Source: an uncultured Fibrobacteraceae bacterium (GTDB taxonomy: Bacteria; Krumholzibacteriota; Krumholzibacteriia; LZORAL124-64-63). From it: a DNA stretch of 64,000 bases. Numbering within the stretch: position 1 is the first letter of the stretch; every line of letters starts with the position of its first letter. The notes under the pieces are model-generated. The model ran no database searches and had not been told where the DNA came from. It saw only the letters and a list, made by a program, of their open reading frames with translations. A program made the translations under genes and the position numbers. Of the stretch, positions 33,332 to 40,298 are shown one piece after another. Location of the stretch: NCBI GenBank assembly GCA_964437115.1, contig CAYTFE010000002.1, forward strand, positions 65,262 through 129,261. The letters run 5' to 3'.

Positions 33332-34276
33332 CTAGTATCGCATCTCTATAGAAAAACGGTGTGAAGGATCCAAGTCGTTGATCATATCTTCAAAAGCATA
33401 ACCAACTATCATTTGCCCTCTGGTAAACCCTGCACCAGCGGTAAAACCTTGTGACTTATAATTAATCTTGGTCCCTGCTCTCAAAGCCAACACCGAAAAG
33501 ATTCTATATTCAGCACCAATATGTGCCTTCTCATTACCATCGTTTGGAACGACTACATCGCCAGCAATAGTCATACTACCTAGAATATCATATCCGAATC
33601 CAATTCTCAGTGCAGTTGGCAATTTATATGGTTCAGCATCCAGAGTTATATCTGATCCCATATTCGTCAACGATGCGCCAAACCATAAGCCATCAACAAT
33701 GGCTTTGTGTGCCAAAGAAAAATCAAAAGCAACTCCGCTGCCACCATAAACATCAATTTCTTCATGCAGGAATTTAACAGTTAATCCTGCAGCCAGTGCA
33801 TCTGTAATTGCCCTGGAATATGACAAACCAATTGCAACCTGATAAGGATTAAAGCTGCCTTCCTGGATTCCCACTGGCTCTTCTCCATATCGACCGATAT
33901 CATCAGAATAAATACCGGAGAATATGAATCCAAAATTGCCTAAAGAGTTACGATGAGAAACCAATAGTGTTTCTTTGTCAAAAAGACCTAACCAGCGCTG
34001 ATGCTGCAACAATAAGTCAGTTCCAGTCTCTTCAAATGCAGCCAACGCAGGATTCCAGAATACTGTTGATGCACCTGTTGCCGACGCAACGCCCGCACCG
34101 CCCATCGCAGTTTCTCTTGCTCCCACAGGTAAACGCAGGGAAAGAAAACCAGACTCTCCAGGCTCACCAGCTTCAGCTTGTACAAACGGAAGTACTACTA
34201 CAACTAACATAAGCAATGCAATGAAAGAATCTTTACTTCGAAACATCTCTATTCCTCTCTTAGGTTGCCAGTTCAT
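33332..34276 (-). CDS. PorV/FadL-like outer-membrane beta-barrel protein.
   Basis: 314 aa with a signal peptide. The N-terminal ...GARETAMGGAGVASATGASTVFWNPALAA... motif is shared by PorV/FadL-type transporters. Alternating beta-strand pattern, and the sequence ends in an aromatic residue. It overlaps the stop of the upstream CTD-protein gene by 4 nt. Confidence 0.45.
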   Translation of the reverse strand: MNWQPKRGIEMFRSKDSFIALLMLVVVVLPFVQAEAGEPGESGFLSLRLPVGARETAMGGAGVASATGASTVFWNPALAAFEETGTDLLLQHQRWLGLFDKETLLVSHRNSLGNFGFIFSGIYSDDIGRYGEEPVGIQEGSFNPYQVAIGLSYSRAITDALAAGLTVKFLHEEIDVYGGSGVAFDFSLAHKAIVDGLWFGASLTNMGSDITLDAEPYKLPTALRIGFGYDILGSMTIAGDVVVPNDGNEKAHIGAEYRIFSVLALRAGTKINYKSQGFTAGAGFTRGQMIVGYAFEDMINDLDPSHRFSIEMRY

Positions 34277-37200
34277 CGAGCAACCGCTACAGATTTAACT
34301 AAAACCTTAATGTCATCACCACTGCTGGCAATTACACGACACACATACAACCCGGAAGCGATATGGTCAACAACGAGTTCAACTTCCACAGGTTCAACAC
34401 CAATTACATTTCGCACATCACTACGAGCAACTTCTTCACCTTCAAGGTTGTAAAGCACAGCCTGGAAATCACACTCGCCCAATGACTCTGCTCTCACATA
34501 TAAAGTACCCGATGTTAATGGTGATGGGTAACAAACAACTGATCCCAATTCAATTAAACCATCACCAGTGCTTGTGGTATCAGCTATGAATCCATTTCTT
34601 GTTGGACAGCCTCCAGACATTGACCACTTACTCGAATAACCATCTGTTCCTGTTATCCTGTAAAACATAAGCCTTGAAACAGGTTCCCCATCAAACTCAT
34701 CATCAATTGCAGCAGACAATCTATTTGTAGCACCTGCAACAATTAATTCCAAAACAGAATCTGAATCTATATCTACAAGCACAGCAGACCCCGCTGGAGT
34801 GCCAGCACCTGCCAGCGGCCAGCCATCAACCAGTCCTCCATACTTATCATACAAATACAACCTGCCGTCACTGCTAGTAAATAACACAAAATCATTTCCA
34901 GTTGGATCAGTACAAACCAAAGGAGTTGGAGAATTATCAGAATTAGTTGCGGTTATTGCTGATTTTGGACGAGCTGGCCATCCAGCCTGAAAGTGACCAC
35001 TCTGACCTGTTGAGGCAAAAACATCGTTGCTTGTGAAAAACAAACCTGGTGCAATTGCGGAAGCAGCATCAACTCTGTTATCCCATAGAACAACTTCCTG
35101 GAGATTATCTTTAAAGACAGTAGCCAATGCTCCTTGGGCAAGAGGGATAAACAGCTGTTCACTATTGCAATACATATGGAAACCGGAAACTTCTGCCGGC
35201 AAATCAAGTATATAGTTTTCTTCAGGCCTGCAAATTAACACTGAGCTTCCTGTTTCCTCATCAGAAATCGGCAAAACAATGTAATCATCCCAAAGGACTG
35301 GCGGAACTTCAGTAACAACGCCAGCTGGCATTATCAACGACCACAAACTTTCACCATCGTGTCCAACTATCAATAACCGATATTCATCTGATAATTCCTG
35401 ATACTCAACTACAATAATTGAACCAGTATCAGTTAACACTGGAGGCAATGGACAGTCATCCATTTCGTATAAGAGTGTCCACACACCCTCTCTATCAAAA
35501 ACAAATAAACCTGCATTCGATGACAACACAATCTCCGAGTATCCGTCATTATTATAATCACCAGCTGCCGGTGATCCCGACCAGGAGACCTCTTCATCAT
35601 TTATATCATCAACAGTTACAGTGAAATATTCAGAACCGTCAGCATTGAATGCATAAATGGTATTGCTGGCAGCAGCAACTATTTCAAGAGTTCCATTATT
35701 ATCGAGATCAACTGCAAGCAGATGACATCCAGACAAATCAATTCCTGGCATTTGTATATCACTGACTAATTCGATTGGAGAACCTGTGCTGACAATTGAA
35801 CAATTAAATGTCATCGAATCAGCCAGAGCAGAAATATCGTCAATTACAATTCCGGTTCTAACTCCCCCAGCGGTATTTGTATTGGGAAGAGTTTCCGGCG
35901 TAAAAGCGGAATAATCTTCCTGTCGATAACTGTCATAATCGCCACCCAGAACATAGATCCCTTGCATAGAATCCATATCCTGAATCCCGTCAGCCTCTTC
36001 CAGGTCAACTGCTTTGCGCTGGGCATCTCCATTGAAAGCACTACTTCCTGACTGAATAGTATTGTTGATTACCCATTCATCGATATGCCAGATATAGATT
36101 CCACTGCCAGCACCTTTTACTCCTTCAGGCCTCCCTGTATTATCACTCATGAAGAAATCAAATTCACTGCCAACAAGTGTTTCTATTGAATCTTCGGTTG
36201 CATCAAAAAAGTGCTCTCCCCAAGTGGGTATTCCTCCAGGCTCACTAACATCATAAAAATCAGGAATCCCATTGCTGTTTTTGTCGTCGCCAAATGAGAA
36301 GATTCCATTGTCATCAGGATCTTGCAATCGATATTCCAACAGAAAATATTCGCTGCTGGAAATTTCAACTCTGGCACATGTGTTAACTCCTGGATGCTCT
36401 GCTGGAAACAGACAGAACAATTCTTCAACCTGATTTGGGAGAACAGAGTAAGGTTCGAGCCAACCCATAAGAACTTTATTGTAAGCACACGGATGGGAAG
36501 GGATTAGGCCACCACCCAAAAACAATCCATAGCCCATTAATCCATAATTACCGATTCCGGCACTGTCAGGGCTGCCTCCTGGAGTTGGATCAAAGAGAGG
36601 TAACATCCCCAGCCTTTGTCCAAACACAAAACAGTAAACGCCAAGTGATCCAGTTGGACCGCCATAAGGATGATTAAAATCCTGAAACTCATATTCGGGT
36701 AAAACCAAAGCCTTGTTAACAACTACGCCATCAGCTGTTTCAATCCAAGGTTGAATTAAAATTGTATCATCATACGCTTCTTCAAAATCAGCTTCACCAA
36801 GATAGCTACTATGTATCTGCCCAGGGGAGTCACCATTTACATCGGTTTCTTCACCAGCATCAGCATGCACAAGAACCACTGTGTCATAATTTGAAAAATC
36901 AACATATTGATCTAGAAGCTCAACAGTATGCTGAACTAGGAGGAATCGTTGTTCTCCATCATCAGGATGATTGCCATACCATTCCATGTCATATGGCAAA
37001 TTTGCAACAGTTCCGCAAACATCATAATCAAGAGTAAATTGGTTTCCACTTACTTCATCAAAATATGTTGCAACATTAGCAAATTGGTTCCCATAGTATA
37101 GAGAGTCATGAGCTGTATAATAAAAATCACCATAAGGATTCAGTAGGAGATCCGGATCCATTTCATCCCATTGACCATAAAACTTGTAGTCTTGAAAATC

Positions 37201-39380: not shown

Positions 39381-39404
39381 GAGACACCTCCTAAGTTGAG
39401 TCGG

Positions 39405-40298
39405 TTAAAACCGAACAACATCTGTTTTTCCATTTTCAGAAATTTGGTTATCAGGAGTTGATAGTTCCGGATTATCTGGATCGACCTGATAAGCCCAATC
39501 TATTTCGACATACGACGATGTAATGTCGTACACCCAGAATTTAGCAAAATGAAGTTCCGTTGTTTGTGGTTCAACAATTCTTAATATGTATGAATGGCCT
39601 TCTATTAATTCGCAGTAACCAGTATTGGAGTAACCATCAGATGGAGCCCAATCGACCCATGCTAAATCTATTAGACCATAATCCTGAATCAGGACACCAT
39701 GACTATCTGCAGTATGTACAAATGGAATATTTCCTTCATATTCCATACAAATATCTGCGAACGGCGAGTCACATTCTATTACATTTCCAGTAAGAGAGCT
39801 AAAGTCATAGCCATCAAGGTTGAATAACCTTACTTCTATACCTTCTGGACGAGGAGTGTCGCCCACAAGCTCAAAACTCAAAGCACTCTGGTTTCCTGTA
39901 GCATCGAATGCAGAGACTGCATAATAATAAGTCTCGCCATTTATTACGTCGTAATCATCGAACCAATGTACTAACGAACTGCTATCATAGTTTTCGTCCC
40001 ATGCAACTTCAGCAACAAGACAATACGGGCCAACTTCTGGAGAATCTCCAGGTAGCTCGGGGCAAAATCGGTAGATAAGATAGCCAACAAGATCATCAAC
40101 TTCATCATAATAGATATCATTCCAGTAAACTGTTACTACCTGATTGCCAGTTACACTAAAAACACCATTAGGAACCGCAGGTGGGGTTACATCAACAGCA
40201 ACAACTTCTTCCTCACAACCCGAGATTGTCGCAAGCAGCATAATAAACAAAGCAGCAACGGCAATAACTGATTTTAAAGAGATTAATTTTGTATTCAT
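39405..40298 (-). CDS. Lipoprotein with an N-terminal fibronectin type III domain. The ORF-track start at 40379 is an over-extension across the promoter.
   Basis: The internal start gives MNTKLISLKSVIAVAALFIMLLATISGC, a lipobox. A GGAGGA RBS lies 5 nt upstream. Fn3 signature: PPAVPNGVFSV...VYWN...GYLIYR...YYYAVSAFDATGNQS. Confidence 0.55.
   Translation of the reverse strand: MNTKLISLKSVIAVAALFIMLLATISGCEEEVVAVDVTPPAVPNGVFSVTGNQVVTVYWNDIYYDEVDDLVGYLIYRFCPELPGDSPEVGPYCLVAEVAWDENYDSSSLVHWFDDYDVINGETYYYAVSAFDATGNQSALSFELVGDTPRPEGIEVRLFNLDGYDFSSLTGNVIECDSPFADICMEYEGNIPFVHTADSHGVLIQDYGLIDLAWVDWAPSDGYSNTGYCELIEGHSYILRIVEPQTTELHFAKFWVYDITSSYVEIDWAYQVDPDNPELSTPDNQISENGKTDVVRF

Follow-up and report, generated by a model that had tools for sequence, protein, structure and literature searches.

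A stretch of 64,000 nucleotides from an uncultured Fibrobacteraceae bacterium (GTDB lineage Krumholzibacteriota; contig CAYTFE010000002.1 of assembly GCA_964437115.1), hereafter called the window, carries a cluster of four genes, here named G1 to G4, preceded by two genes for activators of sigma-54-dependent transcription. The initial annotation of this DNA had described G1–G4 as one tightly spaced, sigma-54-controlled operon specifying a conditionally expressed surface or adhesion complex. The open reading frames (ORFs) and their order, all on the minus strand, were as that annotation had them. Based upon a comparison with 80 related loci we suggest, at a probability of roughly 55%, that the cluster consists of two adjacent envelope modules found throughout the phylum: a sigma-54 module (A), with a structured small RNA (ncRNA-1) and the G1–G2 pair, and a sigma-70 module (B), in which the pseudo-protease G3 would be held at the cell surface by the outer-membrane barrel G4. 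The features concerned are, in the direction of transcription:

44613..45974, minus strand: eR, an NtrC-type response-regulator sigma-54 activator (Pfam Response_reg, Sigma54_activat and HTH_8)
41047..44157, minus strand: eT, a tetratricopeptide repeat (TPR)/MalT-like sigma-54 activator (Pfam TPR_12, Sigma54_activat, AAA_lid_14 and HTH_8)
40824..40839, minus strand: P1, predicted distal sigma-54 promoter, TGGCACATTACCTGCA, with one mismatch to TGGCAC-N5-TTGCW
40536..40815, minus strand: ncRNA-1, a structured small RNA of ~280 nt with its own intrinsic terminator, between the eT gene and G1
40334..40349, minus strand: P2, predicted proximal sigma-54 promoter serving G1–G2, TGGCACAATAGATGCA, with one mismatch to the consensus
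39405..40298, minus strand: G1, 297 aa, a lipoprotein with a fibronectin type III (Fn3) domain and a second beta-sandwich
37719..39380, minus strand: G2, 553 aa, a predicted Sec-exported protein that combines DUF4384 with a CxxCH...C motif, a block rich in Tyr, Trp and Pro, and a tail that is polybasic and Ser-rich
37519..37718, minus strand: structured element of the 3' untranslated region, directly past the G2 stop codon, ~190–200 nt, which in many genomes ends in a terminator
37490..37518, minus strand: predicted sigma-70-type promoter of G3–G4, TTGACG-17-TATAAT, matching the consensus at 11 of 12 positions and the best site in an 8-kb scan
34273..37446, minus strand: G3, 1057 aa, with a zinc-less M6-like domain, an FG-GAP/beta-propeller region and a divergent, putative type IX secretion system (T9SS) C-terminal domain (CTD) of type A
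33332..34276, minus strand: G4, 314 aa, an outer-membrane beta-barrel of the PorV/PorQ family

Proteins identical to G1–G4 are carried by several marine metagenome contigs, from Saanich Inlet and elsewhere, and independent gene calls on these contigs coincide with ours for G1, G2 and G4; the start of G3 was placed so as to give 1057 aa on two of them and 1040 aa on two others. The source is a marine organism that seems to fall within Ca. Krumholzibacteriota or near it. Longer ORF versions of the cluster genes were judged not credible, the 324-aa version of G1 because its own promoter would fall inside the ORF. All four products have signal-type N-termini, in agreement with the initial prediction that the whole set is exported. 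The description of the genes as tightly spaced is true of G1 and G2, which are 24 nt apart, but not of G2 and G3, where the gap is 272 nt in the window and has a median of 354 nt and a minimum of 243 nt in 57 loci. Similarly, the overlap of 4 nt reported for the last pair exists only if G4 starts at 34276 and is restricted to the lineage of the window. A second ATG (Met11), situated 30 nt further 3' at 34246, has the stronger Shine-Dalgarno sequence, and its use would abolish the overlap; elsewhere, most genomes have 30–120 nt between G3 and G4.

A scan using one genome per species yielded 113 relatives of G3; the comparison retained 80 loci, mostly labelled as Ca. Krumholzibacteriota or as unclassified metagenome-assembled genomes. 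Their common order is response-regulator activator, TPR activator, G1, G2, G3, G4, an LpxH-like gene on the opposite strand, a 122-aa ORF, a sigma-70 factor, an M23 peptidase and AmiC. Across these ~80 species-level genomes the order is unchanged in every sufficiently long locus, bar the occasional loss or exchange of downstream genes, and this at a G3 identity of only 33–48%. The comparison of gene neighbourhoods that the initial annotation had proposed thus finds the four genes, together with both activator genes, syntenic in all informative loci, and the four-gene arrangement is far beyond chance expectation. The G3–G4 pair is universal in the Krumholzibacteriota loci, with one pair per locus examined, and neighbours of the G3 and G4 types are retained in addition on two contigs designated L090 and L091. 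Co-localisation had been put forward as evidence of a functional relationship, and here the result is mixed: the co-occurrence holds, but its weight is less than had been assumed, the housekeeping neighbours being equally syntenic. On identical contigs the conserved neighbourhood reaches the tRNA synthetases, and since the synteny takes in unrelated housekeeping genes, adjacency alone is weak evidence for a functional link.

The eR gene heads the cluster in 57 of the 80 loci, that is, in every locus whose contig extends there. The eT gene is located immediately 5' of the small RNA and G1 in 61 loci, and occurs also in the candidate phylum Eiseniibacteriota and in the lineage of L090; judging from this adjacency, eT is probably the cognate activator of both sigma-54 promoters. 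The spacer between eT and G1 measures 750–900 nt in nearly all loci and bears two sigma-54-type boxes on the operon strand. Within it the pattern YGGYAY-N6-TGC occurs 1.88 times per kb, against 0.025–0.045 per kb elsewhere in the loci (a 40- to 75-fold difference); one box or more is present in 60 of 61 loci, and more than one in 51. A box at the P1 position, 200–350 nt past the eT stop codon, was found in 52 of the 61 loci, and a box of the P2 type just 5' of G1 is kept in most. In the window P2 precedes the start codon of G1 by 36 nt, an interval that contains a Shine-Dalgarno sequence, GGAGGA. With GG at −24, GC at −12, fixed spacing and conserved position, P1 and P2 have what is expected of sigma-54 promoters, and we regard them as such on sequence grounds. 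Counted across loci, the same pattern shows no enrichment before G3. The sigma-54 control originally proposed for the cluster is therefore supported for the small RNA and for G1–G2 but probably does not extend to G3–G4, which have a predicted sigma-70 promoter.

A GTCCCC-N4-GGGGAC inverted repeat 5' of P2 was considered as a site for the activator and discarded, being present in only ~12 loci. The eR and eT genes are separated in the window by a gene for a small secreted acidic protein of 101 aa (44191..44496, minus strand), of which only seven of the 80 loci have a recognisable homolog. At the same place L090, L091 and the Eiseniibacteriota locus (L085, accession CP070702) each have an unrelated ORF of ~100–130 aa.

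The region between P1 and P2 specifies a small RNA, ncRNA-1, the 3' end of which consists of a hairpin followed by a U-run. RNAalifold applied to 40 sequences predicted 32 pairs, and compensatory changes occur in 28 of these; paired cells amount to 89%, compared with 73.8% for shuffled alignments, which have a covariation score of 0.233 where the true alignment has 0.503 (none of 500 shuffles reached it) and slid controls have 0.09–0.17. The copy in the window has a folding z of −4.2, and an nhmmer profile recovered exactly one copy per locus. A hairpin loop carries ACAGGGAUC, which we take to be similar to a CsrA-type binding site. We had also considered a small ORF between P1 and P2; this was rejected, as the low-G+C members have no conserved frame and the similarity is seen on both strands and in all frames. 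At the gathering score Rfam has no family for ncRNA-1, nor for the element after G2, in the window and six related loci; at a permissive E-value, used for the ncRNA-1 region and spacer only, it returned chance-level matches, and ARAGORN detected no tmRNA or tRNA. Sequence matches are confined to loci of the Krumholzibacteriota type, apart from a weak match on L091; searches of the Eiseniibacteriota, candidate division GN15 and L090 sequences gave none.

We infer that P1 drives ncRNA-1 as a free-standing, sigma-54-dependent RNA ending at its own terminator. Sigma-54-dependent small RNAs encoded beside activator genes include Qrr with LuxO, CrcZ with CbrB and GlmY with GlrR. Like these, ncRNA-1 has a −24/−12 promoter and its own terminator and is situated directly 3' of the gene for a sigma-54 activator. 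At ~280–340 nt it exceeds the Qrr RNAs in length, and it belongs to no Rfam family.

The first protein of the pair that follows P2, G1, had been annotated as an Fn3 lipoprotein, and both halves of that description are borne out. Its lipobox reads LLATISG-C, with Gly27 and Cys28 invariant in 30 homologs, so that together with the signal peptide it is predicted to be a bacterial lipoprotein. G1 itself matches nothing in Pfam or NCBIfam, and one homolog carries PF00041. An AlphaFold2 model (mean predicted local distance difference test score, pLDDT, 86.6) shows two domains, Fn3 first and then another beta-sandwich. Foldseek aligned this model to many tandem Fn3 structures at probability 1.0, the best match being a Bacteroidetes DUF4466 lipoprotein (4ei0, E 2.7e-6); the Fn3 fold of G1 is thus well modelled. 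G1-like lipoproteins on Poribacteria-type contigs have different neighbours and no sigma-54 box, and were set aside as uninformative relatives.

G2 contains DUF4384 (PF14326) at residues 60–137, at 45.9 bits against a cutoff of 27, and its orthologs are 46–66% identical across the first 340 residues. An alignment of 30 orthologs shows C207, Q209, C210, H211 and C223 to be invariant, as are many Trp, Tyr and Pro residues. C207-T-Q-C210-H211 conforms to the CxxCH motif of heme attachment, which recurs in the relatives from Eiseniibacteriota, L090 and L091 and is absent from the GN15 relative. The CxxCH...C residues could form a heme-c site or a metal site, a Cys3-His metal site reading equally well. 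The description of G2 as an aromatic and polybasic protein also held: Tyr (20) and Trp (11) account for 31 of the 75 residues of a strongly conserved block, and the Ser/Lys/Arg tail of 243 residues, predicted to be disordered, carries a net charge of +46. By way of speculation, these two features might point to binding of an anionic polymer. A structural model was confident for residues 50–200 only, as a generic immunoglobulin (Ig)/macroglobulin (MG)-like sandwich, with a pLDDT of 40–60 in the CxxCH region. Fold searches with this mostly low-confidence model returned generic Ig/macroglobulin-type sandwiches and none at E below 0.001. The module at residues 190–345 is represented by 37 cluster representatives among 1.84 billion proteins, all of the same architecture.

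In the gap between G2 and G3 two further conserved features occur. The element directly past the G2 stop codon has the invariant blocks UUCCCCCCAUC, GAGGUUGGC and AUCAGGGG, and an nhmmer search found one copy in each of the 80 sources. Its invariant blocks include C-rich and CAGGGG ones, and in motif style it resembles ncRNA-1. RNAalifold returned invariant long-range pairs only, and a hand-drawn structure was used in its place: this is 80.4% paired, against 75.3% in shuffles, with a covariation of 0.261 against 0.196 (0 of 500 shuffles reached it; slid controls 0.11–0.15), the clearest compensatory changes being in a long-range helix and a final hairpin. The structure was drawn from one sequence, so these counts are biased in its favour and the support they lend to the element is moderate. 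In many genomes a U-run follows the final hairpin.

Next to this element is the predicted sigma-70 promoter. Sites resembling TTGAC[CG]-17/18-TATAAT, matching at 10–11 of 12 positions, were found in nearly all of 66 loci, mostly 57–220 nt 5' of G3, and this even at 70% G+C. Based upon the conserved long gap, the structured element and this near-consensus promoter, G3–G4 very likely form a constitutive transcription unit of their own.

G3 had been described as a protease-like protein which has lost its zinc site. Its best family is NF052323 ("T9SS-dependent M6-like inactivated metalloprotease"), which covers the M6-like domain (model positions 82–548 of 1043) and, separately, the C-terminal domain (958–1042), at 202 bits, below the cutoff of 600. 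All 20 relatives tested gave similar scores of ~200–210 bits (best E 6e-63), from which we conclude that the G3 group is a sister family of NF052323 and not part of it; the two agree in overall length and in loss of the active site. The M6 domain model TIGR03296 likewise scored below its cutoff (73.4 against 110.8 bits, E 2.7e-20), and Pfam PF05547 (Peptidase_M6) gave no match to G3. FG-GAP_3 (PF13517) is present above its cutoff at residues 604–664 (42.9 against 26.9 bits). A sequence search of the PDB with a G3 profile found nothing at E 0.01 and, at E 10, chance-level propeller matches.

In a direct alignment G3 reads F-V-F-G-Q where its homolog on L090 has HEFGH. Both zinc-binding His residues are replaced and, in the window, the catalytic Glu as well; none of 67 orthologs has HExxH. 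On this evidence the pseudo-protease call is confirmed, and no enzymatic function could be assigned to G1, G2 or G3, as had been noted from the outset. The scaffold of the catalytic domain is homologous to that of the M6 metallopeptidases of the immune inhibitor A/PrtV type, from which G3 differs in that the zinc site is gone; lacking it, G3 is most likely a binding or scaffold protein and not a protease.

The last ~85 residues of G3 give a below-threshold match to a type-A T9SS sorting domain, which ranks first in Pfam and second in NCBIfam; the same match was obtained with six orthologs, one of which (L084) passes at 40 bits. Two further CTD proteins are encoded in the window, one of them (10438..13416) passing TIGR04183 at 30 bits, and the organism thus evidently uses the type-A sorting signal. 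The identification of the last gene product as PorV-like was correct: residues 43–312 of G4 align with positions 3–324 of 326 of the PorV/PorQ family model NF033709, at 157.4 bits against 90. G4 is also related to PorV of Flavobacterium johnsoniae (6H3I_F, E 6e-8 over residues 19–232), and is shorter than that protein (314 against 402 aa). A search of the literature on PorV2, and on T9SS in Krumholzibacteriota, retrieved nothing relevant.

The two halves of the cluster occur separately, or rearranged, in other lineages. In Eiseniibacteriota the TPR activator gene is followed by two sigma-54 promoters and then by G1, the gene for a lipoprotein of 203 aa and that for a G2-like protein with DUF4384; after a sigma-70 promoter come large, unrelated CTD proteins, with no M6-like or PorV-like gene within the flank examined. 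As in the window, a terminator is present between the two sigma-54 promoters, and sequence similarity to the small RNA is undetectable. Candidate division GN15 has the response-regulator activator, G1 and G2 and nothing further of the cluster. The occurrence of G1–G2 and an activator without G3–G4 in these two lineages shows that the modules are separable: the core of module A is the sigma-54 activator with G1–G2, and that of module B is an M6-type CTD protein with a PorV-like barrel. The additional lipoprotein of Eiseniibacteriota is the following:

10867..11478 of L085 (Eiseniibacteriota CP070702): 203-aa lipoprotein, encoded between G1 and the G2-like gene

It has a P-x-Y-x-C-x-x-C-H...P-Y-x-x-x-C motif and a basic, Lys/Ser-rich tail as in G2, and has the appearance of the C-terminal half of that protein as a stand-alone copy.

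On L090, a contig of 2.3 Mb, the TPR activator, G1 and G2 are followed by two genes on the opposite strand and then, at 14708..18708, by an M6/FG-GAP/CTD protein and a G4 homolog. This homolog of G3 retains an intact HEFGH and a match to Pfam Peptidase_M6, and the G4 homolog begins 11 nt later (E 2e-29). An M6 protease with its active-site motif is thus found beside a PorV-like barrel; the inactive Krumholzibacteriota protein would seem to have had as its ancestor an active M6 protease that was teamed with such a barrel.

Gene pairs of a comparable kind are those for SprB and SprF of F. johnsoniae and other type-B CTD proteins with PorP/SprF partners, where a cargo gene is adjacent to that for a dedicated outer-membrane partner. 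The logic in common is a gene for a large secreted surface protein followed by that for its own barrel partner. These systems use type-B CTDs and PorP/SprF barrels, whereas the tail of G3 is type-A-like and G4 is of the PorV/PorQ family. The T9SS attachment complex of Porphyromonas gingivalis includes PorZ–PorQ and PorU–PorV sub-complexes, in which PorQ and PorV keep PorZ and PorU at the cell surface (PMC5562754), so that in that organism, as would be the case here, a type-A CTD surface protein is held by a barrel of the PorV family. G3 differs from PorZ and PorU in being unrelated to them outside the tail and in the adjacency of the G3 and G4 genes, and its interaction with G4 is proposed by analogy.

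Taken together, the organisation which we favour would operate as follows. The activator eT would act at P1 and P2. P1 would yield the free-standing structured RNA of ~280 nt with its own terminator, and P2 the G1–G2 mRNA, ending in the second conserved structured element. Module B would be transcribed from its own near-consensus sigma-70 promoter. G3 would be exported, and its CTD would then let it cross the outer membrane along the type IX pathway, whereupon G4, as a dedicated carrier or anchor, would bind that domain and hold G3 at the surface, as PorQ does for PorZ and PorV for PorU. There G3 would act as a non-catalytic binding or scaffold protein.

Several observations weigh against this proposal. 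The T9SS sorting tail assigned to G3 by the initial annotation is the top match to the profiles and passes in one ortholog, but in the window copy it is below threshold (18.9 against 23 bits for TIGR04183, 19.3 against 27 for PF18962). G4 is under the equivalog cutoffs for PorV (NF033710, 67.8 against 250 bits), PorQ (NF033711, 78.6 against 220) and PorV2 (NF052325, a weak 29.3 against 325), and the T9SS core genes SprA/Sov, PorK/L/M/N and PorU are absent from the 64-kb window. In the window no clear U-run ends the element after G2, and transcripts begun at the sigma-54 promoters may hence continue into G3–G4. Given that housekeeping genes share the synteny, the adjacency of modules A and B may be of little meaning, and any functional link between them would have to be correspondingly tentative. 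Finally, the proposal offers no function for G1–G2.

The possibility of read-through leads back to the arrangement first proposed, a single sigma-54 operon for a conditionally expressed surface or adhesion complex of all four proteins. In its favour, all four genes run in one direction and are invariably neighbours, with two activator genes and sigma-54 promoters located upstream, and on L090 the two halves are still neighbours despite the insertion. This explanation must nevertheless contend with the consensus sigma-70 promoter conserved directly 5' of G3 in nearly all loci, with a G2–G3 spacer that is always long and in many genomes holds a hairpin and U-run, with the lack of enrichment of sigma-54 boxes before G3, and with the existence of G1–G2 without G3–G4 in Eiseniibacteriota and GN15. 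We consider it unlikely, and the notion of one operon is not supported; the conditional expression of an adhesion complex fares no better, since a phylum-wide, single-copy G3–G4 pair behind a consensus sigma-70 promoter looks constitutive. If instead the halves are neighbours by descent only, G1–G2 and G3–G4 would be functionally unrelated and their proximity one instance of a general conservation of gene order. The extension of synteny to the LpxH-like gene, the 122-aa ORF, the sigma-70 factor, the M23 peptidase, AmiC and the tRNA synthetases is what one would then expect, as are the different promoters of the halves and their separation in other phyla. Against this, the order on L090 has changed, with two inserted opposite-strand genes and no LpxH-like gene downstream, and yet activator-G1–G2 and the M6/PorV-like pair are found within 2.5 kb of each other; moreover, Eiseniibacteriota again place large CTD proteins behind a sigma-70 promoter after G2. 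Descent alone is in our view a rather doubtful account.

A further explanation concerns module B only, namely that G3–G4 are not a cargo with a private carrier but part of the core housekeeping machinery that attaches T9SS cargo, a functional analog of PorZ–PorQ. PorZ consists of a beta-propeller-type region and a CTD, an architecture which G3 also has. The pair is universal, occurs once per examined locus behind a consensus sigma-70 promoter, and G4 is slightly nearer PorQ than PorV (78.6 against 67.8 bits). PorQ–PorZ itself furnishes the precedent (PMC5562754). This seems to us quite improbable: apart from the CTD, the sequences of G3 and PorZ are not similar, the window contains a better candidate for PorZ at 2559..4901 (780 aa), and the intact HEFGH protease that is the L090 homolog of G3 fits a cargo enzyme better than a machine part.

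The PorZ candidate belongs to a group of four large genes (2559..13416, minus strand; 780, 841, 916 and 992 aa) without a Pfam match at E 1e-6; two of the products are lipoprotein-like and two have T9SS type-A tails. The 780-aa protein has Ycf48/BNR-like propeller matches and a CTD that best fits the PorZ model NF052228 (40 bits against a cutoff of 260), and its length is near the 757 positions of that model. In this organism the role of PorZ may fall to it.

The genes downstream of the cluster are:

28707..33328, 3' of G4: LpxH-like phosphoesterase, 122-aa acidic coiled-coil-like ORF, RpoS/RpoD-like sigma factor, M23 peptidase and AmiC amidase (AMIN and LysM domains)

The LpxH-like gene is convergent with G4, the stop codons being 3 nt apart. 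On the other side, beyond eR, is a gene (47592..50804, minus strand) for a 1070-aa fusion of B12-binding, MeaB GTPase and methylmalonyl-CoA mutase domains, an ordinary protein of the IcmF type.

As two modules, the cluster combines what is probably a recognisable type of T9SS surface protein with elements that are new. The G3–G4 pair, akin to a curated NCBIfam family, would be a new form of a familiar arrangement in which a barrel of the PorV family partners a T9SS cargo; ncRNA-1, the G2 module and the element that follows G2 are without description in the databases and literature searched. More speculatively, module A might be an undescribed sigma-54 regulon of candidate phyla of the Fibrobacterota–Chlorobiota–Bacteroidota (FCB) group, comprising the TPR activator, the new small RNA, the lipoprotein and a G2 whose CxxCH...C site (heme or metal), Tyr/Trp block and +46 tail bind or organise a mineral or an anionic polymer, be it of the envelope or extracellular, with the dead-protease/PorV-like pair as its surface receptor or scaffold, derived from an active M6 protease which once processed G2; we would rate so full a scheme as rather improbable.

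In G4 there is a clear candidate for a cargo-specific carrier of the PorV family outside Bacteroidota, a matter of relevance to the sorting and retention of T9SS substrates. The active and inactivated M6 homologs, in like genomic settings, constitute a natural pair. Two unreported structured RNA elements have come to light, one of them a putative sigma-54-dependent small RNA with strong covariation, and the G2 module, with its CxxCH motif, aromatic block and polybasic tail, is a rare one. Ca. Krumholzibacteriota and its neighbours are known from metagenomes only, and conserved loci such as this are therefore the main handle on their cell biology.

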